A stretch of DNA of 62,795 bases from positions 1 through 62,795 of the IMG/VR virus record IMGVR_UViG_3300025151_000035; one strand, 5' to 3'. This document shows positions 14,501 to 62,795 of this stretch, piece by piece. Made by a program: the position numbers and the translations under genes. The notes under the pieces are model-generated. The model saw nothing but the letters and a program-made list of their open reading frames with translations. It made no database searches and had not been told where the DNA came from. Positions within the stretch are counted from its first letter, which is position 1. Each line of letters begins with the position of its first letter. The DNA is from a virus (lineage: Duplodnaviria > Caudoviricetes).

Positions 14501-17500
14501 CTATCTTTGCGAATGTGTACAATCGCATATAAGAATCATCTAGCACTGTAGCCGCAGTAGACAAAGCTTTACTTTCAACAGATTCTTTTTCAAATATCTG
14601 TCTATTTCCTCTTTCTTTTAGAGCGTCTATAGCCTCCTGTGTGATCTTAAGCTCTCTGTTTAGAAACTCCCGATCCTTTAAAATCGCATCTTTATTCTGT
14701 TCATACCATTCAGGTATTTCTTCTAAGTTCAGTTCACTAAGTGCAAGATCAGAGGAAAGGTCATAATCTATGTTATCATAGAATAACTTACTTAAAAGGT
14801 TTCTCTTCTTATATAATTCAGCTAAGGCTGCTTTAACTTCTTCTGTAGCAGCATCCATAGCTTTAAAGTGCTCCGTATGGTAGTCTTTAATGCCTTTAAT
14901 TTCCCGCATCATCTCTAGACTGAAAGCAGAAAGGTCATCTTCAATACCCAGTGTAGCCATCATCTGTTCTACACTGCCATGCATTTCTGCTGCGTAAGTG
15001 TCTAGATTAGGGGGTGTTTCTTCAAACTCTTCTATTATAGCTAAAGACTCTAAAAGACTGTCTCTATCCTTAGCAATATCCTGTAAGATGGTCTCACCCT
15101 CTGCAATAGTTCTTTCAATATTATTGATAAGATCTAAAGCGTCTTTATTGGACATGAACTGTCCATTCTTTTTACGTATCCTTTGTCCGGCTTCAAGCTT
15201 ATCTACAAGTTCTGCAAGGTCTCCTAAGTAAGAATCTATAAGAGCCTGTGTTTCCTCTGCCTGCCTTTCAAAGCCTTCAATCTGTCTAAGCGTAACCTTT
15301 TTAGCTTCTGCAATCTTAGACTTGAAATTCTCAATACGTTCTTTTTCTTTTTTCTCTCTTCTCTTTTTAGCAGCCTTCTCCGCCTCTGTAAGATCAGTAT
15401 CCATTGCATTGATCTTCTCCTGAATACTTTGGATAGCCTGTGGACGATATGTAGGATCCATAAGCTGCTTGTACATCTCTACAGCTTTTTGTCTTCTAGC
15501 TCTAAGTTTTCTAAGATCTATAAGATAGGTCTGTACCTGGTCTCCATTTACAGCTACTCCATCTGGATCTGATTCAAACCAAGGCTTTATAATCTCTTCA
15601 AACTCTTGTCCAGAAAGTTTATTGTCTTCACCCACTTCTTTTGCAAGCTCAGATAGCTCAAGCTTTCTATCATACAATTCTTTAAGCTGCTCTTTAACTT
15701 CATCAGTTTGCTCTCCCATTTCAAGAGCATTTATGATAGTTTCCATTTCAGCTATAGCAGCTCTTATAGGTGCGTCTTCATAAAATGCACCTATATCTAC
15801 ACTTCTAGTATTGCCTTCTGCATCAGTGTAATCTATAGTAGATGTTCTATCTTCTCTTTCAGCTTTACCCTCTTTATCTACAGACCATGCAGTACTGGAT
15901 ACTTTACCTCCTGTAAGTCTAGCTACTTCTTTTATTAGAGCTTCTTCTCTCTCTTGAACATTATCCATTACAGATAAGCTATGGATAAGCTGCTTACGCA
16001 AATACCCCATAGAGCCTACTTTTTCTGACTCAAGTACCTTTTGCTTATCATCAAGTCTAAGATGCTCATCAACTTTTTCTACAGCTTCTTTTATCTTAGC
16101 AGCTCTTTTTCTAGTAGCCTCTACTACTTCAGACTTACGAGTATTTATTTCTGCAGACGGTAAGCTTTCTTCTGTATACCCTCCAAGTTCTCTGAACTCT
16201 GCCTCTGACATTTCAAGAATGTCCTGAGTTTGAGATTCGATATCCTCGTATTGACCTGTCATGATCTTAGCCATGACAAAATCAAAGAAATTATCATGCT
16301 CAAGATCTTTTACCAATGAAAGATCACCTCCTTCATAAGCACTATCTAAAAGCTCACTTCGTTTAGCTACGTTCATGAAAAAACTTCCATGTTGGCGTAG
16401 AGAGTTCATAACCTCCGGGTGATCTTTTTGAAGCTGTTCAAGTTTATTTATATACTCTCTTCTAAATTTAGTGTCCTTATATGCTTCTACAGCGGTCATA
16501 TTAACACCAGGTACACCTAGTCCACCTAGCATAGCACCTATAACGACTTCTTTAAGTCCTTCTGTAGTAGTGTAAGACTGTTCTGCACCGTACATAAAAG
16601 AGTCATATACAGAGTCGAATAGGTCATTCATACCTGCATCTTCTCTGATACCGGATAGAAGAGCGTAGTCTGCAGAAGCTCTACCCATTGCTCCTTGAAG
16701 ACCTTCTTCTACAAATCCTTCGTATCCTGCAGTTCCTAAAGTAGATCCTACTACTCTAGCTGCATCTCCTATCTTTTTACCGCTTTCGGTACGTGCTGCA
16801 TCTCCTACCTTCTTAGCAAGTCTACCTGCAGCAGTATCACTGAGGTATTCTTTAGCAGCATTTTTAATGGTCTTTTGAGTTTGCCCTGCGTACTTTAAAG
16901 TACTGTTTACACCAGGCAGATTTCGTATTATATCTTTTGCTCCCTGACCATAAAGCTTAGGTATCATAAGCATGTTACTCATACCTACTAAAGCAAAGTT
17001 ACCTGCAAATACACCGTTAGATATAGTAGTAGACTCGTTCTCTATCTTTTGTCTTTCGTCTGTAGTAAGAGCTTCAAGCTTTTCATCTTCAGACATTACA
17101 GACCAGTCCAGTCCCTTATTTTCTAAAGCTACTTTAACAAGGTTTTCTTTTATAGTGTCGTAAGAATGTCTGGCTTCTACACCTGACTCATAACTTGCAC
17201 CGGTTGCCAGCTGTCGAATGAGCCTACTTCCTTGAAGTATATCTTTTCTATTCATAAACTCTGCACCTCTACCGATAACTCCTTCTATTCTATTTGCTCT
17301 AGAAGAGTTTTTAAGGAGTCTTGTAGCTTGCTGCATACGAGCAAATGTTGCTCCTAGTGTAGCACTTCCTACACCTGCTGTAAGCATTTCGGTCAGTACA
17401 GCTCCTGCTACGAAGCTCATACCGTTCATTACCTGGTCAGACCAGAAGTTTGCAGTACCCATCTGGTCCCACAATCCTTTATTTCTTTCTTGTACTGTAT

Positions 17501-17984
17501 AATGGTTAGGTAGAGTTTCATCCATATACTTATTGATGTCGTCTATACCTCTTGCAAACTCATTATTATAGAACGAGTTAAACTCACCATCTCTAATACC
17601 TGAGTAGATTCCATACCCTAGACCTATAGTACTACCTACAACGTTAGTAAGGGTTTTACCTCCGAACTTTAATAGACCGTTACCCCACTTATCTGCAACT
17701 GTTTGAGTGTATCCTCTAAACTCTTGTAGATTTTGAGCTTGTTCAATATTAGCAACTTCAAAATCTTGCTTATACTTTCCAAACTCTGGATCTATATATT
17801 CACCTACAGCTTGTACTTCAGCAGTTGGAGTAGCCTCTTGTATAAGACCTAAAGCACTTACACCTGAAGAAATAGCATCTATTTCTGCTTGGAGCTCTTC
17901 TTGACTAAGTGATGGTACTATAGGGTCAGTTTCAGGAGTTAGATCAGTTTCTAACCCTTCTACGATTTCATCTTCTTCATCCAT
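5547..17984 (-). CDS. giant virion-packaged DNA-dependent RNA polymerase (crAss-like vRNAP) with zincin-like domain
   Basis: 4145 aa; RIPTDGIHSI...GSDFDIDKL catalytic motif (about 7923-8060) typical of crAss-like two-barrel RNAPs; LYHEAFH...EEWLAEEF zincin motif (about 11935-12145); Gly-rich hydrophobic N-terminal part. Confidence 0.92.
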   Translation of the reverse strand: MDEEDEIVEGLETDLTPETDPIVPSLSQEELQAEIDAISSGVSALGLIQEATPTAEVQAVGEYIDPEFGKYKQDFEVANIEQAQNLQEFRGYTQTVADKWGNGLLKFGGKTLTNVVGSTIGLGYGIYSGIRDGEFNSFYNNEFARGIDDINKYMDETLPNHYTVQERNKGLWDQMGTANFWSDQVMNGMSFVAGAVLTEMLTAGVGSATLGATFARMQQATRLLKNSSRANRIEGVIGRGAEFMNRKDILQGSRLIRQLATGASYESGVEARHSYDTIKENLVKVALENKGLDWSVMSEDEKLEALTTDERQKIENESTTISNGVFAGNFALVGMSNMLMIPKLYGQGAKDIIRNLPGVNSTLKYAGQTQKTIKNAAKEYLSDTAAGRLAKKVGDAARTESGKKIGDAARVVGSTLGTAGYEGFVEEGLQGAMGRASADYALLSGIREDAGMNDLFDSVYDSFMYGAEQSYTTTEGLKEVVIGAMLGGLGVPGVNMTAVEAYKDTKFRREYINKLEQLQKDHPEVMNSLRQHGSFFMNVAKRSELLDSAYEGGDLSLVKDLEHDNFFDFVMAKIMTGQYEDIESQTQDILEMSEAEFRELGGYTEESLPSAEINTRKSEVVEATRKRAAKIKEAVEKVDEHLRLDDKQKVLESEKVGSMGYLRKQLIHSLSVMDNVQEREEALIKEVARLTGGKVSSTAWSVDKEGKAEREDRTSTIDYTDAEGNTRSVDIGAFYEDAPIRAAIAEMETIINALEMGEQTDEVKEQLKELYDRKLELSELAKEVGEDNKLSGQEFEEIIKPWFESDPDGVAVNGDQVQTYLIDLRKLRARRQKAVEMYKQLMDPTYRPQAIQSIQEKINAMDTDLTEAEKAAKKRREKKEKERIENFKSKIAEAKKVTLRQIEGFERQAEETQALIDSYLGDLAELVDKLEAGQRIRKKNGQFMSNKDALDLINNIERTIAEGETILQDIAKDRDSLLESLAIIEEFEETPPNLDTYAAEMHGSVEQMMATLGIEDDLSAFSLEMMREIKGIKDYHTEHFKAMDAATEEVKAALAELYKKRNLLSKLFYDNIDYDLSSDLALSELNLEEIPEWYEQNKDAILKDREFLNRELKITQEAIDALKERGNRQIFEKESVESKALSTAATVLDDSYMRLYTFAKIDSMTGVEKDTSSPTKPSKDYDYSFEDASNSKEGVQVLRKPDIKDTGYSKTVTNHKKDLSKGIKEGALDTYKELKDVDNPTEDEQRRLAHAISVLRFHNWKDSVKLAVNHSKTTKKTYYSHSVAAITVNNIPEELGDMLTVEDFYRTPEEIEQGLPSSEIKLVVFQNQKSTYNKKTGKTEFENVNEFVTVEDEQGKGLVFANSMLPTLDIDGRERFRNDYNLEDSEREDIRAAHESWRNEIIDQAKENQEIFLYPIKEKSIGELILNKEPEQNSGKLNGKNEYSKVPLYIGSSNEGLTSTIGLPIGKTTVATRPGLVWAQDTARQMPIPMVGRTLSEEEVVNASRLLHLFLKKREEFIAEEKKKKTPEAYKAAMKNLQAFTIEVEGKKVNLKKAIEDLIYFQSSKKEKDNVDFQLYHNKGSLVFGADEQTIELKDFEEGTEVVKAFTDFLSTKYHNVNKGSLGTATDGWVELVLDENLGVDEDKTNVSWRNYNEYLLRDRDIGQSPLMTRATPIFMKETRDGKTVNFRPLDAPRALGGYIKFDPSEKRRESLAGRRAKAPAVKTTFKTKREQELADAAEAGARAALQTLKEQGFTPQPPTPPDPDQGQTMEDVMNNARERADQELSPEEKADQAIKDEAAKAQQAQIDDALNMASKDLVFEYLDDKNASGKRLEELYKEGNLTDEVKGYVEEWLNSSSDTDASPDSNTFEAPKPGEEENFLSSSYELASDDYIKEEFAEELARVKGMTSAEIIPVIGMVKGMSGEGYAMLRRDGKILVSNLAPGGALYHEAFHDVSLTMLSKEDRNKIYDIVRNLKGKAVPYQEIAKGEQDRSYKPKSKPLSEFTDKETEEWLAEEFRRYALSKGKYKIGKDTVTPREENFFKKLFNFIRNTFRAMFKLDKALDTDFDLQGVEELFAKIERGGFKNAQRTVENLDVADDVMMSAKLAGETTARFTADLNSTLTAYFADALQGGTFTNEAGEQQEISVKFEDFLDLSTGERDAQIRMAYFNAWTNMYNDLLAKYNSAKEGSEEQAQTLATLKYLYGDEAGGRQKRLEAVQLHKQFLSELGLDFEIEDTRDEDEVSSRMFADVSDRMEMSPTDSAKGIVKLLLGTIPINTGETNSTGLRGVYELKTVLKTLQTNLEGTLDFETQLEIIDGISEDYEWAPQVLERLGDYEMDGGTAIETVLLHTAVRSQFAKTMYDTQYTILQENGRIGNIDPSLERNLKSIRARWDSFLRSKEKTSAHMTMSPEGSIVFDNKAKANFNREKLTLEEIRDKVILKGYGMKLDALEHIGITFSNREKLEEILEIDPERTLKNSEMTYKEVLEDGLAFVYGDLIKGTTNLAALFDREEAQSVTRMNALAKLELETTKMDYEFQHQNPEGKIVYSISLNNYLTTIANTGMDKLRGVYYSSPKNLSKNPYAFSSLTLKALQENENKNIDIIIREGLTIEGVGETGVKTSKLRPTDNLVSYVESIMQGIMPLLQAADISTNFAIRFPIQDFKTIDSAKEAFLGYLMDEIMAVNKGRKEGIDVDYFTERINRPGLGSLRMFESLMSKVDTSIIDRMTEIMNDPKAGRIDVQKFVNENSDQIFESIDANLRVNMRTLKDYMLDLKVIHDNEDGTYQVLGLNREHFSKELPDNINSEQLDAFLEEVITKQTVYKNETFKVFFGDPAFYKALFKRIKGAAGVKDIFSVDPQLDKWLNESENARAKYDGRKSDGTEDLAVIQEPQRVTPYYNEYLETLSPEIAAAYRRAADKADGTLLLTLPSYREMAIRGNTWSVEQERAYENAMRGDVLTEEEYGKFPPLKFQYFGYLPNGNVDTQVPGFFKMSAAPIYPGLAKMGNETFPGILNMYDFLTSNKLGGLILPSAFKIGVPGDAGQLQLMDGDVIRSSEDLTASFSEGQKVNIDYTFMGTQLEVPSKFKGKSPLATQARVQVLSDLFEDGQLREEFRELAPTVERYNEVLNALIDRGYKELLDELNLEESIDDQGIRTYTVKNQDYSKFLEAIKDESIRRQMPMQLMASLDKLQERNDAKKPMYFDAVSNKGRLEGVLWSLAGKRVIRQKFDGDMYVQQSSLGFETAKIEDVPGVRLKELKPYTVGDQYMEVYLPHHFKEMVDKDVVITQEGIFADGELIGGLDLVEMIGIRIPTDGIHSIEAIKVKGFLPRSAGPTVVIPSEMVTKSGSDFDIDKLVLYFPSYKKVGNRLVKEKFYPTLEEWYNAQDRVTPEELEQLKGDSLTQALVYNFAKSVGKQPFEDWKKDNPEATVYNVQSRGAMQNAVMEDMIALLQAKGVTNEEAKQERFDTWMQPVNTSDAENVAEKITDLYKGTDKLPDLSGITDYNLNTDIPYLIKVSEAFNKGKTLVGIAALASTHNIKGQMAGLRLNAKDMSIQLPGRLAKVRLNFEGFDPLAESYSLGRTMNINNTMRISDAISQLVNASVDVVNTPILHILNINPDNANMWMFLIRAGVDMETIAMFANQPIVKDYLSKLEVGRSRTMKVMEKSEYEEEIAKSLRKKYATSYKVPETESGVRAFNSDILAETVAQDVNDLTEKQKFEQLQILTDMMVYSKIGDDLGNIVTAQSFDTKVPKNRNHLRVVLDMYESAVSTDLFENVERISGMNIPGSVAAEELSETDESEPANFMKAMTSYNFSMQTVFNEMFLTEKAGEQYRDDFRRVQKIFTNPKIKGLSVDDRARILSKFEDGFISFILQNAYKEGMIPLGNNIETLMFGDDSMANRLQKIQDPKGDHPLRDNPFILSLVPVLSASREGQDRTNDYLQPVSRTMTSYEMRTIFDGFNDIRATDPDLARAFVQTALLQSGVGSSPVSFLNTIPGDFVLEYMEDYLDSYLNGSSQLNIEGSYFDKFFMDNHNDRQIVPKDNSFSQKLYPFTYKITKESLQARKAARKAGLPLPKVQKYFYRNFKADRSGGAANSMQSVSIPVTGSRTFVNMTDTIRIPRNEMLDKNRISPDNNEGDVDITCYTA

Positions 17985-20128: not shown

Positions 20129-22849
20129 TTATTTTTTTTGAGCCTCGTAATTCTTCCAAAACTGTGCTTCTGCCTCTTCTCTAGTCATACCATACTTATC
20201 CATAAACATTTTAATTGCCCCTTCTTTTACTTCATATTCATCTACTCCAGCAGGCAATGTTCTATTGATATATTCTTTTTTGTATAATCCAGAAGCAAGT
20301 TCATTTCCAAGCTCTCCCATTACAGATCCCATATACTTCTTACGCATGTTCTCAAACGACTGCTTTCTAAGAGACTCTGCTCTTCTAGATTCAGATGTTG
20401 TAAGATCTTTACGTTGGTTAGCCATATCTGCCTGAAGCTTTGCTTGCTGATTAAGTTGCTGTTCTGTAGCACTTGCCTGTCTATTGATATCATAAACATT
20501 TTGTGCAGCCTCTTCTTGAGCTCTTAAGCTTATCATTCTAGCAGCATTAAGCTGTCCTTGTCCAGAACCTATTCTTTGCTGTATTCCTCTTTTAGCAGCT
20601 ACAAGCTCAGATTCTCTTGCTCCTACTCTTGTATCTTTAGCTCTATCTATAAATACTTTTTCAGCTTTTACATCTCTTGCTGTAATAGGAGCTACAGGTG
20701 TATACTTTTGACTCATAGTCATACCTATATCACCAGCTGCACCAGCTACACTAGCTAAAGGTGCACCATATTCAGCTAAAAATTTTCCAGTAGCTGTTCT
20801 TACTACTCTTTCTTCATCAGGGTTTCCACCATTTCCATACTTCATAAGTCCACCATATCTAGCACTTTTCTTATTTCTATTAGCAAAGTTTCTAGCAGCT
20901 TCCTCACTGCCAAAACCCCACTTCTTAAGTGCTAAAGCTTTTCTTGTAGGCTCACCTTTTTCATTTTTCATAGGCCCTTTCATACCTGCAAATCTTGCAG
21001 CAAAAGAAACTCTACGTGGGTTTGTACCTGAACTTACAGGAGCTTTTAAGTTAGAACCTTCTGCTTTTGCAGATGCTCTACCTTTTGCATTTAGTCCCCC
21101 GCTAGGATTCTGTCCTTCTTTACGTGTCCAGGCTGGACTTTTAAATCCACCTTTCTTATACTCAAGGTATCCTCCGTCTCTTTTAGACTCTCTTAAAGCT
21201 TTTGCTGTAGGAGCTCCTTCAGACCCAGGCTTACGCATCTTTTCTCCAGATCCAGCTGCTATTCTTTTCCTTTTAGCATGGATATTAGCCCATAGACCTC
21301 CTCCTTTATACTCACTGAGATACTTTTGTGCTTCTGCATCAGACATGTGGGATTCTAATCTAGACTCAAGTACTTCTTTAGGTAGTTTACCACCTTCTTC
21401 CATGTAGTGCATCATGCCTCCATCTCTCTTAGCAAAGTTCTTTGCAAAGTTTGCTTTCTTTCTCATCTCTGGTGAGTATTTACCTTCAGGAGCGCTGAGA
21501 ATTTTACTTGCTGCTTCTTGTACTCCCATACCCATTTTAGATGCTTGAGCTTTAAATGTACCTCGTTTAGCAGGGTCAATATGGATACCTCCACCTTTGT
21601 ACTTCATCATACCACCATACTTTGCGTATAGTTTACTGGGATCTCTTTTAGCTGCAAGCTCTTGCTCTATTCTTAGCTTTTCAATATCTCCAGGTCTAGC
21701 TCCTTTTTTCTTCATTTGTTCAAATTTTTTAGCAAAGCTCATACCTCCGGTTTTAAGATGGTCTGACCAGATATATTTTTTAGAGGCAACTCCTCCTCCT
21801 CTCATTTCTTCTATAATCTCTCCTCCTTCTAATTCAGAGTCTACTACACCATCTCCACTAAGATCCATAGGTACACCACCGTTCTCATGTGAGGGACCTG
21901 TTACTTTTGTAAAGCCTCCACCCATATACTTCATTAAACCTCCATATCGTGCTGATGGAACATTAAAATATTGTTGCGCATTCATTGCTGCGTTTTTAGC
22001 TTTTTGCTCTTCAGCTCTCTGCTCTAGCTTTTTTCTATCTGCAACTAATCTATCATAATCAGCTCCAAGTTTTTGTTGTTTAGATCCATAGTCTGCTGCA
22101 GCTCCTTCACTTGCAGCTGCCATAATTCCTCCTATAGCAACAGGTATAGCTGCAAAAGGTCCGAGCACTGGAGTTAAACTGGCTCCAACTGTTGCAATAC
22201 TTTGACCTACAGAAGATACACCTTTAGATGTAGCTATCTTCCTATTATATTCTTCAAGTTTAGCTTTAGTATCTTTATTGTAATACCTATTAGGATCGTC
22301 AATAGTTTTCTTTTTAGCTGCTTGAGCTATAACTCCTGTTACTCCTGGCAGAGCTTGAGAAACACCCTCTGCAATTGCTTGGTCTCGTTCTTGCTTTGAA
22401 GGACCTTTAGGATCAGGTTTGTACTCAGCTTTCATAATATCAGACCTGTTAGACCTGTCTCCAAACGCTGTCTTTGTATCTTTATAATAGTCAGTAAGAG
22501 ATCTAGGCTCTAAGCTTCTATCTAAAGAAGTATCCAGACCAGTAAAAGAAGGATCTGAAACATTTGATAAATGTCCTGAAGAAAAACTAGGAGTAGTGCT
22601 GCCTCCATATAAAGTATTGAACTTGGAAACTGCTGCATCATATGATGGAGTAGTTTGAAGATAATTGCCTGATCCTAGACTATAACCTGTATTTAAACCT
22701 CCAGACCCCAAATTGCCTGTACCAAAACCTGTACTTGGTGTAGTAGGAATTGTAGGTGTAACCATACTTCCTGTCTGATACTTTTTAAGAGGACTTTTTT
22801 TCTTCCTGCTCTTACCTTTTACAGTGGATTTTTTGCTAGATCTTCTCAT
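20129..22849 (-). CDS. putative cargo protein with a membrane hairpin and YxxGG-delimited basic modules
   Basis: 906 aa; hydrophobic SIATVGASLTPVLGPFAAIPVAIGGIMAAA segment; GPSHENGG domain; repeated (R/K)(Y/D)GG-x-(M/L)-x-Y-x(2,3)-GG linkers; directly follows the muzzle gene. Confidence 0.7.
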   Translation of the reverse strand: MRRSSKKSTVKGKSRKKKSPLKKYQTGSMVTPTIPTTPSTGFGTGNLGSGGLNTGYSLGSGNYLQTTPSYDAAVSKFNTLYGGSTTPSFSSGHLSNVSDPSFTGLDTSLDRSLEPRSLTDYYKDTKTAFGDRSNRSDIMKAEYKPDPKGPSKQERDQAIAEGVSQALPGVTGVIAQAAKKKTIDDPNRYYNKDTKAKLEEYNRKIATSKGVSSVGQSIATVGASLTPVLGPFAAIPVAIGGIMAAASEGAAADYGSKQQKLGADYDRLVADRKKLEQRAEEQKAKNAAMNAQQYFNVPSARYGGLMKYMGGGFTKVTGPSHENGGVPMDLSGDGVVDSELEGGEIIEEMRGGGVASKKYIWSDHLKTGGMSFAKKFEQMKKKGARPGDIEKLRIEQELAAKRDPSKLYAKYGGMMKYKGGGIHIDPAKRGTFKAQASKMGMGVQEAASKILSAPEGKYSPEMRKKANFAKNFAKRDGGMMHYMEEGGKLPKEVLESRLESHMSDAEAQKYLSEYKGGGLWANIHAKRKRIAAGSGEKMRKPGSEGAPTAKALRESKRDGGYLEYKKGGFKSPAWTRKEGQNPSGGLNAKGRASAKAEGSNLKAPVSSGTNPRRVSFAARFAGMKGPMKNEKGEPTRKALALKKWGFGSEEAARNFANRNKKSARYGGLMKYGNGGNPDEERVVRTATGKFLAEYGAPLASVAGAAGDIGMTMSQKYTPVAPITARDVKAEKVFIDRAKDTRVGARESELVAAKRGIQQRIGSGQGQLNAARMISLRAQEEAAQNVYDINRQASATEQQLNQQAKLQADMANQRKDLTTSESRRAESLRKQSFENMRKKYMGSVMGELGNELASGLYKKEYINRTLPAGVDEYEVKEGAIKMFMDKYGMTREEAEAQFWKNYEAQKK

Positions 22850-25800
22850 CGGTCTTGGATTCTATATGGAGCTTCAGTATTATACAAATTTATCAAATTA
22901 TTATCAAGGTTATTGCAGATCAATCGAAGTGCTAAGAACCTGTCTATAAATTTACCTTGCTTATTCCAAGGCTTAGTCAAGTCTAAGTAGCTAGTATTGA
23001 ATGTTTCATACATACCATCTACTGTAAACATTGCTAAAGGAGTAGCTGTAGGAACACTTGTAGTAACTGTACCGGCAACTGTAGCTCCTGTTATACCGTA
23101 GTTACCTCCTGTAAATGGTCCTGTGTAATAAATAGCACTATCTGCTACCTCTAAAGACATATCTCTGAACTGATTTACTTTCCATGATCCTCCTGTTTTT
23201 CGAGTATTGATCATGTACTCTATATCAGACTCTCCAGAGTTTGCATCAGAGTTATATACTATGAATGAAGTAAACCCTGCATTTAAATCTTTGATATCCC
23301 TATTACCAGATGTTTGAGGTTCAAATACATCTGCTAACCAGTTGATGCTATAGAATAGTTTATTGTTTCCTCTTTGGAAGTTATGGATTATCTCTAGCTC
23401 AAAATTAGAAGGGGTCTGTCCATAGAACTTGCCTAAGTGAGACCCTCTATCATGACGGTAAATACCTCTATCTGTAGCTGTAGAGTATCCGTTTACAAAA
23501 GAGTAAAAGTCTATTCCTAGTGTAGCATAGATATAGGGTACGTAATCGTGGAAAGAGGTCCAACTACCTGCTTTACCTTGAGATATTTCAACTGTAAACG
23601 AAATAGTCCATCCGGTCTGTTCAAAATACCTATTTATTTGAACGTCATCACTCTCTGCAACGATATCAAAAGGTTGCCAGCTCTGCAAAGCTCCTTCTGT
23701 CACTAATCTATAATAAGATCCGTTTACCCATATTACTCCTGTAGCCCCAGCTGTAAATGCTGCTGTAGTGCTTTTATACTCTCCACTATAGTCTCTGATA
23801 AAAGTAGCTGTAGGTTTTATATCTCTCTTTGTAAGTATAACTCTACTATACCTTTGATCCCATACAGCATGAAATCCCATTCCAGTTATAGGACTATCTA
23901 TAAGTCCATCAAACCCATATGCTTCTAGTGCAAAAGGAATATTTGTTTGGAACCATCGCTGCATACCGTAAGCTGTAGATGTAAGATCTATAGGGGAGGA
24001 TCCTACTATAAAGAATATCTTTCTGGTTTTTACATCCACTGAAAAATATCCATTAGGAGTAATTACAGATGCTCTCTGTGCTCTTGTACCTACATATCCT
24101 GTATCTGCCATTACAAGCTCGTCAGGATCTTGTGCAAAAAGATCTCCGCTTCCTACATAAGCACTGGTCCCGTCGTCAAGCTTCATCTTCTGCTTTCCTT
24201 TGGTACGGAAAAGAGTGTCTTCCATATGGAAATAGAGCAGGTTATCAGCACTTATAAGTTTCCAAAGCTCTCCTTTATGTGTAGGTAGTTCTCTATACTG
24301 ATCTACTTTAAAAATCCTATAAGTATCGATGATACTATCTCTTTCAAGCTTGTTGGATCTGATTACCCGGCCTGGAAAGCTTGTAGTTTCATCTATATTC
24401 AGTGGCTTTGGAAATACTGATTTAATATCATTTACAGATGAATAAGCTTCATTGTACCTCATGTTACCAGTTCCATCATCTGGTGCATATGTAAGGTCTT
24501 CATCTGCTTTTATATCTAACAGATCTGCAACAGGTGCTCCTGGAAAATAGGTTGATTTTAAATCTTGTATATGTCTAAAGTTGATGTTATCTGTGCTTTC
24601 TACAATAGCCATAAACACAGATTTTATATCTTCTCCTGTAGGAAAATAAGCTCTGTTAAGAGTCTGCTCTCTTGAAGTTGTCCTATATCCGTGTCGACAT
24701 ATAAATGTATCTCCCCCATAGATATCTTCAGTCTCAAATCTATTAGGTAAAGCTGTATTAGGTGCCGGTATAGGAGTTCCGTTATCATCTACTACAAAGT
24801 TATCCAGATCATCTCCTACTACTTCGTATCCTGTCCATACAAGGTCCTGTACATCAAAAGAGTTATATAGATTAGTTCTAAATGCTTTTAAGTTTGCAAG
24901 TAAAAGTGTTAGCCCTTTTGAGTCTTCATTATCAGTACTAAGGTTAGAAAAAGAGATAGGAGAACTATTTGCATTAGAACTATAATTATTCCAATTCCAT
25001 GGAGATGAAGTTCCTATACCTCCTCCTGAAACAGTATTTGGTGTAGGTACTTGAGTAGTAGCCAGGGCTAAAATAGTTTCTCCTCCAATATTGTATATTT
25101 CTTCGTTGAATCCAAAAGCCTTCCCTTTAAATCTTATGTTACCATTTACGTACGCTTTTGCTTTATCTCTTAAAACATAATTTGCTCTCGGGCTTGAGCC
25201 TGGACCTGTAATAGAAGAAATGTGATTTCCTGCTGCAAAAAATGCAGTCCATACGCTAGGAGACACACATGACGAAGCTCCTTCACCAGTTATAAGCGGG
25301 TCTGGATATACCTCATCATTGTAAAAAGTAGTATTACCTCTAAATTGATATGTACCTAGAAGGTATTGAGTTTTAATGTGCGTAGCCGGAGTAACATCTT
25401 TCTGTCCATTTAAAAGATAAAAATCATGAAAAGAAAACTCTCTAATTAAAGATTCTGAGTTTTTACGTGTTGGCGCACCTACAGGGTACAGATAGTCTGA
25501 AGAGTCTGTAATAGTGTTTGGTATAGGCTGATACCCTGGACAATTAGCAGTGTCTCTATCAAACCTCATGTCCATATCATGTATAGGATTTTGTCCTAGT
25601 ACAGTTCTATTTTCATGGGTTCTATTAGCATAGTATATTCTAAATCCTTGAACCTTATCTGCAATAGATTTAGGAATCTTAATATCACTTAATTTAAACC
25701 CTAAAGCTTGAACAGTATTTGTAATTGCTGATTCCTCTGTATCTTCAAATACAGGCTCACATGTAGCCCATGCAATCCATCCAGGTCTTGAACTTGCCGC

Positions 25801-28155
25801 CTTAGGAGGAAATTTATAGGGGGAATTACCTCCATTTCCTTTTGGATCCATCCAGCAGTATGAATTATTTCCTACAGTCCAACTTCCACGTACCCATCCA
25901 AAAGCTGTATTTCCACAAGCAGCATTACTACCTGCAGGAATATTTGGGGTGTCTCTCCACCATCCCAACATCACATAAGATCCTTGAGGCGGAGCTGTAC
26001 CTGCATAAACATGCTGTACTTCTGCAATATTTTCAGGGTCTTCTTCACACCAATGCCAATCTTCTGGGCTAACTTCTCCATTTACAAAATCTTGAAATGC
26101 GCCATCTCTTGGATCTGTAATTGTATTTCTAGGGGGATTACAGCTGTTAGTATTCATACCATCCCAATAGCTACACACATTATCAGTCACAGCTACATTT
26201 ATACCATCTACAAAATCTTCAAAATCAGGACAACTAGAATTTTCATTCATGCCTCCTGCAGAAAAACTAGCTATAGAGTAATGATTAGATTGTCCTCCCC
26301 CACTACCACCACCTATATTTTCTCCATCTATATTACAATCATTAAGCGCTCTATACCAAGTATAGTTTACTACAAGTTTTATTTTAGTTCCTGCAGACAC
26401 AGTTGTAGACGGTCCACTGGATCTTGTTACTGTAGCTCTGTCAGGATTAAGATTTGATGGGAATCTATGATGTCTTACATTCTCTGTCCTTAAAGAAGGA
26501 TTAGTCACATTTGGTTGTTGAGCATCTACTACATCAAAATCTTCTGTATCTGGATAAAACTCATTTAAGTTTTGCCAGTAATTCATTTTCTTACTAGCCT
26601 GCAGAGTAGAGAAATCATACCATTGAAAAAAGTAAGAAATAGGGTTTTGCCACCCTCCTGTAATATTTAGTATGTGCCAATTATTATACCCATTTCCTGG
26701 AGTATAAAGTTTATCATCTTCATTTATATATGTAAAAAGGCTAGTTCCGCTTACCCACTCGTCTGTTGTACCATTTCTAAGTTCTGGAACAAGAGTTCTA
26801 AGCACATTTTTAAGAGGGCCTCTACCAGGAATATGATAAGCATAACTCATGCTACCATCTCTAAGAATGAATGCTATATAGAATGCATATACTTCTTCTC
26901 TTGTATATCCTTTATATTTAAAAATATTCAAGGCATCTCTATATCCTTGATCTCTTTCCCATTTAACACCTGTTTTTTTGTTTTGAAGGTTATCGAGACT
27001 GAGTTGAAAAGGATCAAATGGGTTAAACTCTTTTACTACAGATTCTAATGAGATATAATTAGCATACTTTTGATATCCAAGATCTCGTGTGGCTTCTAGG
27101 TTTCCTAAGTAAAGAGTTCCATCTAACTGTGTAATAGACTTAGCAACATCGTATGAAGCTTTATCTATAGTAACTTCTTCTATACTGAATAGCTCAGAAC
27201 CTCTTTCTCCTGAGTACACAACTTCCATTTCAGGGTTGCCAAGGATCTCAAGTTCTGGAAGCTTTCTTGCCTGTCTTCCTTCTCCTACATCAAATACTAT
27301 TGCAGCAGTAAGAAACTTATAATCTGTATTGATATTGGTTACTTTCCACTTTATAGATTTTCCAGTGGGAGTTCCTGCAGGAGCACCGTCATAAGATTCT
27401 ATAGGGTATATACCTTCTGTAGCAGGAACTACAGATACAGGATTTGCTACAGTTACAAAGTTTGTTCTTGTAAAATCCTCATCTGTATAAGCTAGCGCTA
27501 AGTAGTATACTCCACTTTTACACTCTCCACCCATATTAATAGTAGCCTCATCTACATGAGGAACTGTTCCTGCATTGGGAAATAAATCTAATATTCCTAC
27601 GTAAGATCTATTATTAGAAGTTAAAAGATCTACACCATAGATTCTACCTATAGCGCTATTTTGCTGTCTTGTAATATTCAGTGTACGAGGAGGGTTAAGA
27701 TCGTCTGTCCAATATATTACCTGGTCTCCATCTCCCTGCTCTACAAATGTTCCTTCAATAGGATTACTCTCTTGAAAGTTTAAAGTCTTTCCTATAGGAT
27801 CCCATGTAGGATCTGCATTTTCTTCAGCAAGACTAAGAATAGTTTCATATACTCCGTCACTGTAGATACCTATTTTACAAGAAGCATCCAACTGAGTATT
27901 AGGATTGTCCACTCTTAAGAATAGAGCTATCTTATTATCTAATATAGGTATAGCTCCTATTACAGTACTGTACTCCGGCAATGAAGCCATAAGAGTATTA
28001 CCCTCCTCATTGGATATGGCTCCATAAGCTCTATTGACCACTGCATTTTTTGCATAGCGTACGGTTCCTGCAGGCTGATCTAAATGAGAAGTATCTTTAA
28101 ATAACCCTTGGATATACCGTATTGAAGAAGGCTGATTAGAATCGTTTTCTGCCAT
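22846..28155 (-). CDS. tail stabilisation / muzzle protein (P22 gp10-like)
   Basis: 1769 aa; RYAKNAV...ISNEEGN, IYWTDDLNPPR, GGDTFICR and WTSFHDY motifs of crAss-like stabilisation proteins; synteny. Confidence 0.85.
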   Translation of the reverse strand: MAENDSNQPSSIRYIQGLFKDTSHLDQPAGTVRYAKNAVVNRAYGAISNEEGNTLMASLPEYSTVIGAIPILDNKIALFLRVDNPNTQLDASCKIGIYSDGVYETILSLAEENADPTWDPIGKTLNFQESNPIEGTFVEQGDGDQVIYWTDDLNPPRTLNITRQQNSAIGRIYGVDLLTSNNRSYVGILDLFPNAGTVPHVDEATINMGGECKSGVYYLALAYTDEDFTRTNFVTVANPVSVVPATEGIYPIESYDGAPAGTPTGKSIKWKVTNINTDYKFLTAAIVFDVGEGRQARKLPELEILGNPEMEVVYSGERGSELFSIEEVTIDKASYDVAKSITQLDGTLYLGNLEATRDLGYQKYANYISLESVVKEFNPFDPFQLSLDNLQNKKTGVKWERDQGYRDALNIFKYKGYTREEVYAFYIAFILRDGSMSYAYHIPGRGPLKNVLRTLVPELRNGTTDEWVSGTSLFTYINEDDKLYTPGNGYNNWHILNITGGWQNPISYFFQWYDFSTLQASKKMNYWQNLNEFYPDTEDFDVVDAQQPNVTNPSLRTENVRHHRFPSNLNPDRATVTRSSGPSTTVSAGTKIKLVVNYTWYRALNDCNIDGENIGGGSGGGQSNHYSIASFSAGGMNENSSCPDFEDFVDGINVAVTDNVCSYWDGMNTNSCNPPRNTITDPRDGAFQDFVNGEVSPEDWHWCEEDPENIAEVQHVYAGTAPPQGSYVMLGWWRDTPNIPAGSNAACGNTAFGWVRGSWTVGNNSYCWMDPKGNGGNSPYKFPPKAASSRPGWIAWATCEPVFEDTEESAITNTVQALGFKLSDIKIPKSIADKVQGFRIYYANRTHENRTVLGQNPIHDMDMRFDRDTANCPGYQPIPNTITDSSDYLYPVGAPTRKNSESLIREFSFHDFYLLNGQKDVTPATHIKTQYLLGTYQFRGNTTFYNDEVYPDPLITGEGASSCVSPSVWTAFFAAGNHISSITGPGSSPRANYVLRDKAKAYVNGNIRFKGKAFGFNEEIYNIGGETILALATTQVPTPNTVSGGGIGTSSPWNWNNYSSNANSSPISFSNLSTDNEDSKGLTLLLANLKAFRTNLYNSFDVQDLVWTGYEVVGDDLDNFVVDDNGTPIPAPNTALPNRFETEDIYGGDTFICRHGYRTTSREQTLNRAYFPTGEDIKSVFMAIVESTDNINFRHIQDLKSTYFPGAPVADLLDIKADEDLTYAPDDGTGNMRYNEAYSSVNDIKSVFPKPLNIDETTSFPGRVIRSNKLERDSIIDTYRIFKVDQYRELPTHKGELWKLISADNLLYFHMEDTLFRTKGKQKMKLDDGTSAYVGSGDLFAQDPDELVMADTGYVGTRAQRASVITPNGYFSVDVKTRKIFFIVGSSPIDLTSTAYGMQRWFQTNIPFALEAYGFDGLIDSPITGMGFHAVWDQRYSRVILTKRDIKPTATFIRDYSGEYKSTTAAFTAGATGVIWVNGSYYRLVTEGALQSWQPFDIVAESDDVQINRYFEQTGWTISFTVEISQGKAGSWTSFHDYVPYIYATLGIDFYSFVNGYSTATDRGIYRHDRGSHLGKFYGQTPSNFELEIIHNFQRGNNKLFYSINWLADVFEPQTSGNRDIKDLNAGFTSFIVYNSDANSGESDIEYMINTRKTGGSWKVNQFRDMSLEVADSAIYYTGPFTGGNYGITGATVAGTVTTSVPTATPLAMFTVDGMYETFNTSYLDLTKPWNKQGKFIDRFLALRLICNNLDNNLINLYNTEAPYRIQDR

Positions 28156-60729: not shown

Positions 60730-60913
60730 CAACCTCAATCCTTGAAAAGCCACAAGGTAGCAGAAACTTCACGTTATAGGCGAAGCGTGTCAAGGCAGAC
60801 AAGTCTTATACGTACTTATTATAGTGCGTAAAGGTCTGGAAGAGGGAGTGTGTCAGCTCTCTCTTCCAAGACTAATCATTTAAACCTTAAAAATCATAAT
60901 AATTATAATAATC

Positions 60914-61171
60914 ATGAAGTACTATTCAATAGATAATATCGTACTGATAGCTTACTCCGAAGAATTTAATTACATAGCTACATTAATGCCTTCAATTGGT
61001 ATATTAAAGAGTGGAGCATCAGATGCGAACATTCTTTTATTAGAGTTGACTGGATCTTCTAATGAAATAGATCCGAAAACATTTCAGGAGTTTATTGCAA
61101 AGCCTGAAAACAGCATGGATGCTGCACAAGTATCACTTTATTGGAAAACCGTTGAAAATACTAAGTCATGA
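60914..61171 (+). CDS. hypothetical early protein
   Basis: 85 aa; AT-rich leader; ATGA overlap with the next gene. Confidence 0.6.
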   Translation: MKYYSIDNIVLIAYSEEFNYIATLMPSIGILKSGASDANILLLELTGSSNEIDPKTFQEFIAKPENSMDAAQVSLYWKTVENTKS

Positions 61172-61380
61172 GAAGAATAGGTGTATTTTTATTTATATCA
61201 GCAGTTCCTACATTACTTATAAGTGCTGCTTGGATAGTGTCAATAGGTATGTTTAACTGGATGGAAGCAGTAAGGTCTGAAGTGGCTTTTATGTTTACCA
61301 TTTTCAGCATTCTATTTGCATTTCTAATAACTTGTTCAATGAGCAAGCATGAAATTTGTGAGTTTTACAAAGGCTTTTGA
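61168..61380 (+). CDS. small two-TM membrane protein
   Basis: 70 aa; two hydrophobic helices. Confidence 0.6.
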   Translation: MRRIGVFLFISAVPTLLISAAWIVSIGMFNWMEAVRSEVAFMFTIFSILFAFLITCSMSKHEICEFYKGF

Positions 61381-61381
61381 C

Positions 61382-61549
61382 ATGGTAGAAGTATTTGATT
61401 GGTGCGTTTGGGTCTTAGAGACCTGCGCACCGCCACTTGGACTCACATATAAAGAACTTAATGTGTGGGTATTTTGCATTATAGAGCCTATAGTATTTGT
61501 ACTTATGGCTATTTACATTTTAACAACATTTAAAAGGAAAAGATCATGA
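61382..61549 (+). CDS. small membrane protein
   Basis: 55 aa from ATG 61382; F.WCV..L...A...GLTYKELNVWVFCIIEP pattern common in phages. Confidence 0.6.
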   Translation: MVEVFDWCVWVLETCAPPLGLTYKELNVWVFCIIEPIVFVLMAIYILTTFKRKRS

Positions 61550-61968
61550 CTAACAATTCGATCATGAAAATTTGGGCTTACAAGCATAAAGGACAGTGGG
61601 TATTTGATGACGAAGACAGAGGTTTAGTTAAAGAACCATTTGTTGCAGGTGCAGATACACTTTTAGACATTATATCTAAAGGTAAGAACGCAGTCAGTCT
61701 TATATTTTCTGGAGATGATTTTCCTAAAGCGACTCTTGTTATCAATAGAGTTGGTGAAAGTGCGGGATCATTCGGTGGAGGTACAGATTATGTGTTTGAA
61801 GCTCCTGGTATAACACTGCCTGTATGGCTTTGTCCAGCATTGTTCAAGTTTTTCAAAGAAGCACCTGAAACTATTTATGTTTATGCTACACCAGCTGAAT
61901 ATAACGAGCCAGGATTCATAGCTAGAACTATGAGTAAAGTTTTAACGAAAATAGGGGAGGTCGTTTGA
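61546..61968 (+). CDS. DUF6717-like protein
   Basis: 140 aa; Y...GQWVFDD...GL.KEPFVAGAD.LLD...WLCPALFKFF..APETIY. Confidence 0.75.
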   Translation: MTNNSIMKIWAYKHKGQWVFDDEDRGLVKEPFVAGADTLLDIISKGKNAVSLIFSGDDFPKATLVINRVGESAGSFGGGTDYVFEAPGITLPVWLCPALFKFFKEAPETIYVYATPAEYNEPGFIARTMSKVLTKIGEVV

Positions 61969-61980
61969 CCTCTTCTATTT
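61950..61980 (+). terminator. terminator-like hairpin overlapping the stop codon
   Basis: AATAGGGGAGGTC-GTTT-GACCTCTTCTATT. Confidence 0.55.
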
Positions 61981-61984
61981 AAAA

Positions 61985-62176
61985 CAGGTGAACCTAAGAC
62001 CTGAGTGAGTAATCACTAAAGAAGATAAGGGAATAAATAACCTTATCCAGTGTACCCTTGAAATGCCATTAGAGAGGGAAACAGTTTAACGCGATTTAAC
62101 GTTGCATAAATCCTTAAAAGGGTTGACTTAATACACTGAGGAGTTGGCAGCTAGACCATTGAGGGATGGTGCTAAT
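61985..62176 (+). ncRNA. candidate pseudoknotted structured RNA, copy 1 (compact, about 190 nt)
   Basis: Six conserved stems and a TGCCA/TGGCA pseudoknot shared in the same order with copy 2; no ORF. Confidence 0.65.
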
Positions 62177-62190
62177 TTAAACGAACCGGT

Positions 62191-62589
62191 AAGGTCAAAC
62201 CTACGACCTTGTGATAAAAATTAAGGCACTTTAAGTGCGGTTGTGGTTGAAAACTCCACATCACTAAAAGAAGATAAGGGAAAGTGTAATAAGAATTTTA
62301 CTGGTGTAACTGATGAGGTAGGAAACAGAACTCATTGGGATTGGTGGAAAAAATATCTAAGTTACACATAACCTTATCCAGTGTACCCTTGAAAGTATAG
62401 TCTGCAATGTAGACTATCAGATGCCATTTGAAAGGGACTAACTGCAAAACAGATTTACACTGAGGAGTTGGCAGCAAAGAGATAATGAGCCTGGGCTACA
62501 TTTATGTAGGATGTGTAAAAGCATTAAGGAATATGAAGTAGTTATCTCGTGACCATTTATAGTAGTTTACTATTATAGATGGTGCTAAT
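62191..62589 (+). ncRNA. candidate pseudoknotted structured RNA, copy 2 (expanded, about 400 nt)
   Basis: Same conserved blocks as copy 1; the extra length comes from self-contained hairpins inserted at loops and junctions. Confidence 0.65.
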
Positions 62590-62795
62590 CTTAGACAGTT
62601 GTGGGATACACTCTTGACAACGATCAACTGTCTCAGGCGCATGTAAAATCGGACATGTTGCTGGTAAACAACCGTGATGGGATAGACCCTCATCTACTAA
62701 GATAGTAAGAACCTGGAAAGTCAAGCTGGTTCTGAATTACATAGGTGTACAACTATGTAAACGGACACATATGGTAGGCTATTGCCTATGTGTTT

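Follow-up and report, generated by a model that had tools for sequence, protein, structure and literature searches.

What kind of element occupies the end of this phage contig, where two adjacent non-coding stretches carry the same potential hairpins in the same order? The window, by which we mean the whole stretch of 62,795 nt that was analysed, comes from a marine crAss-like phage whose relatives infect Bacteroidota, in line with the crAss-like link suggested in a preliminary description of the locus. That description, made from the sequence, proposed a tandem pair of a pseudoknotted RNA with modular hairpin insertions, and all of its blocks lie at the positions it gave, as listed among the features below. 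The two adjacent units, here termed unit A, are one structured element occurring twice, with an identical core and five hairpin insertions that differ.

Two copies of one element

The features of the two copies, and of the hairpin that forms the upstream edge of the cassette, are as follows.

61957-61972, + strand: ORF-end hairpin, which overlaps the stop codon ending the 140-aa ORF upstream and precedes a T-rich run; upstream boundary of the cassette
61985-62175, + strand: unit A copy 1, 191 nt, near-minimal, with P1, short H2, short H3, H4 enclosing H5, the pseudoknot, H6 and a 5-nt conserved tail
61985-62003, + strand: copy 1 P1 (H1 of the preliminary description), a hairpin of 5 bp whose loop is conserved; across the family, both-side changes in 4 of 5 pairs
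62005-62016, + strand: copy 1 H2, an optional hairpin; 4 of 5 pairs covary
62024-62030 with 62041-62047, + strand: copy 1 H3, 7 bp; both-side changes in 5 of 7 pairs (helices 3 and 4 of the pair count)
62048-62054 with 62132-62138, + strand: copy 1 H4, enclosing H5 and a variable insert; compensatory changes in loci L134, L136 and L137
62055-62059 with 62074-62078, + strand: copy 1 H5, inside H4
62064-62068 (loop strand) with 62145-62149, + strand: copy 1 pseudoknot; both-side changes in 2 of 5 pairs and pairing in 96.4% of cells in a 28-sequence core alignment
62139-62151, + strand: copy 1 post-H4 strand, near-invariant, holding the pseudoknot 3' strand (62145-62149)
62155-62170, + strand: copy 1 H6 (helix 10 of the pair count), followed by a conserved unpaired tail at 62171-62175
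62191-62588, + strand: unit A copy 2, 398 nt, expanded; core as in copy 1 plus five insertions
62273-62279 with 62372-62378, + strand: copy 2 H3
62379-62385 with 62456-62462, + strand: copy 2 H4
62422-62426 with 62469-62473, + strand: copy 2 pseudoknot
62479-62548, + strand: copy 2 H6a, an extra hairpin
62552-62583, + strand: copy 2 H6, extended

Copy 2 exceeds copy 1 by ~207 nt, which derive from insertions in H2, H3 and the H5 loop, from H6a and from the extension of H6. The helices of the preliminary description are present, with two lengths corrected: H5 consists of 5 pairs and ends in a U-G wobble, and H6 consists of 6 pairs. Its tandem arrangement is real in the window but is not general, as, among the loci compared, a second unit occurs only here and in L078, and possibly in L087; one copy per locus is the rule. 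For the ORF-end hairpin, a scan for terminator-like sites gave the - strand, and the + strand assignment was read from the sequence. It is a single site within the window, and for that reason its interpretation as a general promoter was dropped.

Conservation of the fold

Copy 1 has an MFE z-score of -4.23, with none of 200 shuffles folding as well, and copy 2 a score of -4.06 (0 of 100 shuffles). A covariance model, R1, was built from three minimal or near-minimal units, all from loci other than the window. It returns exactly two matches in the window, one on copy 1 (62002-62178; 69.7 bits, E 1.4e-15) and one on copy 2 (62355-62591; 48.6 bits, E 2.3e-10), and the sole further match has an E-value of 7.8.

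Covariation among homologues, which the preliminary description had named as a test of its proposal, is extensive. Across 53 complete units, 25 of 51 pairs show both-side changes versus 7.3 in shuffles, and 96.3% of cells pair versus 92.5% in shuffles; neither value is reached by any of 500 shuffles, and slid controls give 36-44% pairing. Pair counts were taken from the MAFFT alignments A9 and A10 instead of R1, because R1 aligns the 5' part of long units poorly. Alignments A2 to A7 were discarded for misplacement of strands by MAFFT around long insertions or for an over-long model. Misalignments that persist in A10, of L134 in the H5 loop and L136 in the H4 3' strand, lower the pair counts of the core alignment; read by eye, the letters of L134 also leave the pseudoknot and H5 fully paired. 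Searching with exact core words accounts for part of the near-invariance of the core. Diverged members (L125, L134, L136 and L137), recovered by searches anchored on H6 or P1 and hence outside the core, carry compensatory changes in H4, H5 and the pseudoknot, and these changes substantiate the pseudoknot first proposed from the window.

The predicted fold, as shown by these comparisons, comprises in order P1 with its conserved loop, the optional H2, an A-rich linker, H3, H4 directly after H3 and enclosing H5, the pseudoknot, H6 and the tail; we infer that H3 and H4 stack. P1 stems of minimal units are wholly different while the P1 loop is the same. No pairing partner for this loop was found, because variation is too low. 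H2 is missing from five loci (L036, L047, L074, L072 and L022), and in L022 a longer covarying stem takes the place of the H6 stem. About 146 nt suffices for a natural unit, the remainder being helix-capping modules that can move between helices. The comparisons support the picture put forward in the preliminary description, of a structured RNA family encoded by phages, with modular hairpins at the periphery of a conserved core. An alternative helix that pairs the post-H4 strand with the 3' tail is favoured by single-sequence folding, yet, read by eye, it is broken without compensation in 6 units, and the pseudoknot tolerates the same changes.

Comparison with described RNA families

The preliminary description recognised no known family, and Rfam agrees. 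At gathering threshold, Rfam 15 gives no matches in the whole window, only one tmRNA and one tRNA in ten related loci, both off the unit, and no match on the units of ten further loci. In E-value mode, the region 61800-62795 yields five matches only, with E-values of 1 to 8.7 and 11-22.5 bits versus thresholds of 40-86. Elsewhere in the loci, the Rfam search recovers true tRNAs, a tmRNA and a group I intron, and the units are unmatched. The proposed likeness to SAM-I and raiA RNAs did not hold up, as neither family matches 61800-62795 even at E-values up to 10.

Targeted models gave the same outcome. ARAGORN and the Rfam tRNA and tmRNA models make no call on unit A, the GOLLD and ROOL covariance models leave it unmatched at any threshold, and the group I intron model matches no unit, although that search gives the true intron in L134 a score of 100.7 bits. 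None of 50,697 phage records was matched by blastn at E ≤ 1e-3. With a minimal unit as query, GenBank phage records gave only matches of 19-26 nt (E ≥ 0.5, 88 records), which is chance level. Searches of article text by core words and keywords, including a 2026 preprint, found no description of such an RNA; the core words matched only an unrelated zebrafish paper.

Several resemblances were considered and set aside. Hammerhead-like words and words like the GTPase centre of rRNA have no model match in their support. An RNase P P4-like reading of the post-H4 strand likewise has no model match, and the corresponding helix is unsupported when read by eye. ToxI-like type III antitoxin RNAs consist of tandem repeats of about 35 nt beside a toxin gene; units A usually occur singly, measure 146 to about 500 nt and lie beside no conserved protein gene.

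Relatives and an optional cassette

An 18-nt core word searched against viral contigs gave 18 matches, 17 of which are true relatives, and a second scan added 2. Metagenomes contributed 65 stretches with relatives, and one of seven matches in genome contigs is real, in a Flavobacteriales MAG. Motif scans together yield 63 distinct units. Cellulophaga phage phi14:2 lacks the unit (best R1 match E 0.56). Judged by their sequence, the units in the window are true members of a previously undescribed pseudoknotted RNA family of uncultured marine crAss-like and other large phages.

Unit A is an optional cassette, because a close relative (G001; 97% complete, terminase 89% identical) lacks it at the same site, where a second structured RNA, element B, directly follows the same ORF-end hairpin. 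Could it then be a selfish element, intron-like and mobile or a recombination-prone RNA or DNA cassette with no function for the phage? Presence and absence at one exact site between close relatives would fit, as would the breadth of carriers, whose terminases are 27-95% identical (two records, 60% and 16% complete, have no terminase match). So would the shuffling of modules between helices across units, a remnant in L126 reduced to H6 and the tail, and fragments in L127, L130 and L133 in which the 5' domain alone is left. However, no mobility-enzyme ORF, conserved flanks or target duplication was found, the units are intergenic with no insertion inside genes seen, and the group I model that detects the L134 intron matches none of them. 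The complex fold is, moreover, under strong purifying selection that includes compensatory changes. We regard a functionless selfish element as improbable.

Element B

The non-coding locus runs past 62589, where the preliminary description ended it, into element B and a terminator that had been missed.

62590-62795, + strand: element B, second structured RNA, about 215 nt; the window end cuts its final U-run

Element B is a second new structured RNA, directly downstream of unit A in this phage lineage. Two hairpins, the 5' one with a conserved loop, are followed by a long-range helix around three more and by an intrinsic terminator. Element B directly follows unit A in 13 distinct loci and occurs without unit A in G001. 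Of the 51 pairs that RNAalifold gives for 13 element B sequences, 20 carry compensatory changes, and Rfam has no match to the element. The conserved loop was considered as a promoter and rejected, because the stem that flanks it covaries and its spacing is too long.

An RNA or a DNA signal?

The pairing patterns show that the predicted unit A RNA is read from the + strand. In 45 of 53 units H5 is closed by a U-G pair, and in 28 of 53 the first H3b pair is G-U; on the opposite strand both would be mismatches. In the eight largest clusters of neighbour ORFs, each with 5 to 8 loci, the recurring ORFs all lie on the same strand as unit A.

RNA libraries include sequences from the locus. One seawater RNA-Seq run holds a 151-nt contig identical to 62612-62762, and in a second run of the same study a 195-nt contig covers 62192-62287 without difference, joined to a copy-1-like core; both are of low depth, and DNA carry-over is possible in each. 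The coding flank (60800-61984) has no cover in any of four runs, which carries no evidential weight. Two runs, X3 and X4, are probably DNA, and only relatives occur in both.

The locus lies near the end of two linear contigs, those of the window and G001, which would suit a signal that acts as DNA, for instance an origin, a packaging site or a structured promoter. The end of the window contig, however, is an assembly break, because the sequence of a close relative (L016) runs on into ORFs past the equivalent position. The G-U type wobbles on one strand only, the covarying pseudoknot, the terminator downstream and the RNA-library contigs that cover the locus all argue for an RNA, and we consider a DNA signal very improbable.

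Genomic neighbourhood

No protein family accompanies unit A: the largest neighbour cluster occurs in 8 of about 60 loci, and clusters of immediately downstream ORFs include 3-5 loci each. Among 46 usable downstream contexts, a terminator-like site precedes any ORF in 11, and in 18 the next ORF start is no more than 100 nt away and nothing terminator-like intervenes. In these 18 contexts the unit would sit in a 5' leader, an arrangement that fits a cis role and co-transcription alike. Only 3 of 50 units have a Bacteroidota-type promoter in the 150 nt before them, so that for most no promoter of their own can be recognised. The location of the units in the small-ORF arm, antiparallel to the structural genes, would fit the early expression that the preliminary description proposed for a ribozyme-like or protein-binding RNA.

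A cis-acting leader, either riboswitch-like or a 5' UTR element that controls translation or stability of the next gene, would account for those leader-like contexts, for a core conserved as highly as an aptamer and for tandem copies, which some riboswitches have. Coherent downstream genes, as expected of a riboswitch, were not found; the downstream ORFs are diverse, and in 13 distinct loci the next element is another ncRNA followed by a terminator rather than a gene. The candidate switching helix, formed by the post-H4 strand and the tail, is the one that lacks conservation in 6 units, and large movable peripheral modules are unusual for aptamers. A leader role is unlikely on this evidence.

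The scarcity of promoters and the position of units between ORFs, tRNAs and another RNA could also reflect a self-cleaving or processing ribozyme that cuts itself from polycistronic early transcripts or separates tRNA-like and RNA units. The compact, pseudoknotted core, with its invariant residues at junctions and the variable periphery around it, would be in keeping with this. No self-cleaving family in Rfam matches, however, there is no evidence for defined ends, and at 146 nt or more the units are above the typical size of self-cleavers, which makes such a ribozyme a doubtful proposition, even more so than a leader.

Association with tRNAs and a proposed role

Transfer RNAs lie near some of the units. 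In L134, eight tRNAs precede the unit on the same strand, in L059 one lies 133 nt upstream, and in L027 one lies 418 nt downstream. A tRNA-like fold stands where P1 and H2 normally lie in L024, and the 5'-domain-only fragment of L127 is inside a 23-tRNA island. By eye, tRNA-like pieces are present in L018, L024, L058, L062 and L125. Of 65 unit-bearing loci scanned with ARAGORN, many of which span only 1-3 kb, 6 yielded a tRNA or tmRNA call; the window yielded none, and we therefore treat the tRNA link as a minority feature.

What, then, do the two units do? We lean towards reading 61985-62588 as two side-by-side genes of an undescribed ncRNA family whose product would be a stable RNA acting in trans, close to GOLLD and ROOL in lifestyle but not homologous to them. 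The two copies and element B may be made as one non-coding transcript, or cut from a longer early transcript as phage tRNAs are, and would act in trans as stable folded RNAs. A conserved partner from host or phage, perhaps a component of the tRNA or translation apparatus, could then dock on a surface or in a pocket made by their invariant junctions and loops.

A bolder idea, which we hold only tentatively, is that unit A represents a new class of ornate RNA aimed at a conserved part of the host: a ribozyme or RNA-only particle that might act on, mimic or capture tRNA or the translation machinery, with element B working alongside it. The internal pseudoknot would then resemble the pairing of several RNAs with the tRNA 3' end, and a tRNA-like fold can stand in for the 5' domain.

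To our knowledge, a new class of large and complex natural RNA fold seldom comes to light, and for most of those described (GOLLD, ROOL, OLE and raiA) no function is known. Its 146-nt natural minimum, strong covariation that includes the pseudoknot, and movable modules make unit A tractable for probing, cryo-EM and activity screens, and it is accompanied in element B by a second structured RNA of no Rfam family. CrAss-like phages are globally abundant, and their early biology is poorly understood; neighbourhoods shared with phage tRNAs, tRNA-like folds and tmRNAs hint at unseen RNA-level host takeover or counter-defence in marine Bacteroidota phages.

Relation to known RNAs

Among described RNAs, unit A has an invariant pseudoknotted core, variable helix-capping modules and GNRA loops on minimal stems, as do group I introns and RNase P RNAs. 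Unlike group I introns, it is intergenic, has no exons and has no Rfam match; the known RNase P RNAs are all far larger. With raiA and SAM-I RNAs it shares short words only. Like phage tRNAs and tmRNAs, unit A is an accessory, cassette-like RNA gene, mostly without its own promoter, variable between close relatives and found in the same neighbourhoods, but it has neither a cloverleaf nor a CCA end.

The closest parallels are with GOLLD and ROOL, the latter several hundred nt in size. Passages of a published study describe both as phage-encoded RNAs with multiple pseudoknots, for which no protein partner is known; tRNA islands are often close by, a tRNA is in some cases joined to the RNA, and GOLLD members are often >800 nt (PMC12286853). 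Unit A is also phage-borne and pseudoknotted, no partner gene was found, and in some loci tRNAs or tRNA-like folds lie beside it or replace its 5' domain. It differs in its much smaller size, its fold and its hosts, which are marine crAss-like phages. A homo-oligomeric cage is among the features expected of a GOLLD- or ROOL-like RNA. The novelty lies in the RNA family or class, and the lifestyle resembles that of GOLLD and ROOL.

A conserved RNA core in two units of different size

Unit A is a new and strongly constrained pseudoknotted RNA fold. It is an accessory cassette of large phages, marine crAss-like ones among them, and lies beside another new RNA that we call element B. Its two copies in the window, A1 and A2, were placed by reading the sequence of 61000-62795, and element B follows directly.

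Structured RNAs of the locus
61985-62175, + strand: unit A1
62191-62588, + strand: unit A2
62590-62795 (window end), about 215 nt, + strand: element B, the second structured RNA

Every block listed in the preliminary description was found in this sequence. In both copies the core opens with helices P1 and H2 and an A-rich linker; H3 comes next, then H4 with H5 inside it, a near-invariant strand, H6 and finally a tail of 5 nt. The extra length of A2, as had been claimed, comes from five insertions (about 207 nt), all placed in loops or junctions and each folding by itself. Compared with shuffled sequences, folding gave z -4.23 for A1 (0/200 shuffles as good) and z -4.06 for A2 (0/100). ORFs across the region are short (≤63 aa).

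Unit A matches no known RNA family. At gathering score, none of the 4227 models of Rfam 15 matched anywhere in the whole window. E-value mode on 61800-62795 returned five matches, all with E ≥ 1 and far under threshold, to animal lncRNA, miRNA and snoRNA families and one archaeal snoRNA family; SAM-I and raiA, to which likenesses had been proposed, are not among them. Nothing was found on any unit in related loci (ten searched at gathering score, ten in E-value mode), where the matches are all off-unit: true tRNAs, a tmRNA, a group I intron and a small DUF805b motif. The intron (L134 12561-12788, 100.7 bits) is on the same stretch as a diverged unit and a tRNA array, and the DUF805b motif (L137 273-305, 42.8 bits) lies about 650 nt downstream of a unit. 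No meaningful match to unit A was found by blastn against 50,697 phage records, Cellulophaga phage phi14:2 lacks it, and text searches of the literature, with supplementary files outside their reach, found no account of such an RNA.

Relatives were recovered by motif scans. An 18-nt core word matched 18 viral contigs, 17 of which carry the whole element, and a second pattern scan added two viral-contig relatives. The metagenome scan gave 65 stretches. One of seven matches in the genome_contigs scan is real (L096, a Flavobacteriales MAG contig); the other six, all GC-rich, had no covariance model match. Anchor parsing resolved 63 distinct units, the smallest natural ones being 146 nt and 149 nt (L072 and L022) and the longest about 500 nt. 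A covariance model built from only three minimal or near-minimal units of other loci recovered exactly the two window units, and gave 76 matches in 83 sources.

Covariation and the pseudoknot

Covariation among homologues is extensive. In a MAFFT alignment of 53 complete units, tested against the structure that we had named, 96.3% of 2447 cells pair (92.5% in shuffles) and 25 of 51 pairs have changed on both sides (7.3 in shuffles). Neither value was matched in 500 shuffles, and slid controls pair at 36-44%. The covarying parts are P1, H2, H3, the H3 extension, H6 and H6a, an extra hairpin before H6. H4, H5 and the pseudoknot hardly vary in this set, an invariance that is partly search bias, because the units were fished with words in exactly those parts. 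New searches were therefore anchored on H6 plus the tail and on P1, and these recovered four diverged units (L125, L134, L136 and L137).

Within the diverged set, the central pseudoknot pair changes from C-G to A-U, to G-C and to U-A, and compensatory changes, partly read by eye, also occur in H4 and H5. The pseudoknot proposed in the preliminary description is thus upheld: in a 28-sequence core alignment, two-sided changes are seen in two of its five pairs, and 96.4% of cells pair. Jointly, the three core helices pair at 94.9% (91.7% in shuffles, 0/500 as high); two rows of this alignment are partly misaligned, which lowers the count. The one-sided pseudoknot changes seen earlier in the 53-unit set are mostly wobbles. 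The units are oriented on the + strand, since U-G and G-U pairs occur on that strand. This pairing evidence counts against the rival reading of unit A as a DNA signal.

A periphery of movable caps

H2 and H6a are optional across units, and in minimal units H3 amounts to just 7 bp closed by a GNRA loop. One 32-nt module (96.9% identical) lies within H2 of L007, L017, L053 and L079 and also within H3 of L079, and a 73-nt module (85-86% identical) lies within H6 of L021 and L043 and within H3 of L040 and L088. Like modules cap different helices; the unit's periphery is therefore built of helix caps that can move. Partial units also occur. At about 960-1010 of L126, the H6 hairpin and tail occur together with the A-rich leader of a gene downstream, the rest of the unit being absent; this piece is either a remnant or a cassette recombination point. 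In other cases only the 5' domain is present (P1, H2, the linker and H3), and what follows is another type of hairpin and perhaps a small ORF; such elements lie at about 4200-4400 of L127, with the same sequence in L130 and L133, and downstream of the L010 unit.

Carrier phages and the neighbouring RNA

The window record is a linear virus, 73% complete, whose major head protein, portal and large terminase are crAss-like. This terminase shares about 41% identity with those of gut crAss-like phages, and its 160 matches include Bacteroides, Flavobacterium and Cellulophaga phages. Large genes occupy the - strand from 617 to 57953, and A1 and A2 come last in a short arm of small ORFs on the + strand. 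The structural arm includes very large - strand ORFs (5547-17984, 4145 aa; 22846-28155, 1769 aa; 617-5536, 1639 aa). In crAss-like phages, an RNA polymerase is part of a giant virion protein.

Among the carriers are phages whose terminases share 95%, 37% and 27% identity with that of the window; two carrier records (191 kb, 60% complete; 53 kb, 16% complete) have no terminase match. The close relative G001 (97% complete, terminase 89% identical) has no unit A. At the same place it has the ORF-end hairpin that the window also has and then element B directly, and unit A is therefore an optional cassette. A selfish cassette is a rival reading of this presence and absence. In G001, at about 82.4-83.7 kb (L122 380-1679), the stop codons of two paralogous ORFs are each spanned by a copy of this hairpin, with element B directly after. 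No neighbouring protein family is common to more than eight of about 60 loci; the neighbours that recur, all of them encoded on the unit's strand, comprise small uncharacterised proteins, a SET-domain protein and a family A DNA polymerase.

The non-coding locus extends past the end point of the preliminary description into element B, which lies 3' of unit A in 13 distinct loci. Its sources are the window, L007, L015, L016, L017, L043, L047, L053, L055, L058, L078, L083, L086 and G001 (L121/L122). This unannotated RNA has a hairpin whose loop is conserved, a long-range helix around three hairpins, and an intrinsic terminator (a hairpin, then a U-run) at the 3' end. RNAalifold gave 51 pairs, 20 with compensatory changes, and Rfam had no match. 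Both the G001 and window records stop inside the terminator. In L016, the relative whose terminase is 95% identical, the sequence past the terminator holds ORFs; the window therefore stops at a break in assembly rather than at the end of a genome.

Expression and possible function

Most units lack their own promoter: a Bacteroidota-type promoter occurs ≤150 nt upstream in 3 of 50 units (background, 0.5% of windows). L078 and L086 have a full -33/-7 match of this type 39-62 nt upstream of the unit start, which suggests that host polymerase may transcribe the unit in these phages. Among 46 usable downstream contexts, 11 have a terminator-like site ahead of any ORF (20/170 control windows), and in 18 an ORF starts ≤100 nt downstream with no such site between. 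Where an ORF starts so close, unit A would lie in a 5' leader, which would suit the rival reading of a cis-acting leader as well as co-transcription.

Low-depth contigs on the locus, from two seawater RNA-Seq runs of one study, show presence, not transcription. A 151-nt RNA-library contig is identical to 62612-62762. Another of 195 nt (run X2, on window 62033-62287) is identical to 62192-62287 and joined to a short H3 and a copy-1-like core; it mixes the copy 2 5' domain with that core and is therefore a natural recombinant relative.

tRNA genes lie near some units. ARAGORN called tRNAs or tmRNAs in 6 of 65 unit-bearing loci, and neither in the window's 62.8 kb. L134 has 8 to 10 tRNAs about 1.5 kb upstream on the unit's strand, L059 a tRNA-Arg 133 nt upstream, L027 a tRNA-Leu 418 nt downstream, and L021 tRNAs in the locus. 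The L024 unit (reverse strand, + strand about 11833-12362) has a tmRNA (58.2 bits, 9765-10142) about 1.7 kb downstream. By eye, with no ARAGORN call, a cloverleaf-like fold with a GNRA loop at the anticodon-loop position replaces its P1 and H2, and its H3 insert carries a T-arm-like hairpin. T-arm-like pieces also lie just upstream of units in L018, L058, L062 and L125, and the 5'-domain-only fragment of L127 sits between two tRNAs in an island of 23 tRNAs plus a tmRNA.

We favour a stable trans-acting RNA as the reading of unit A, with a mode of action that we infer. The RNA may be processed out of early transcripts or co-made with element B; were it to process itself, unit A would be a ribozyme, which is a rival to the trans-acting reading. 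The invariant junctions of a trans-acting RNA would presumably bind a conserved partner. The lifestyle of unit A would then be like that of the GOLLD and ROOL RNAs (PMC12286853).
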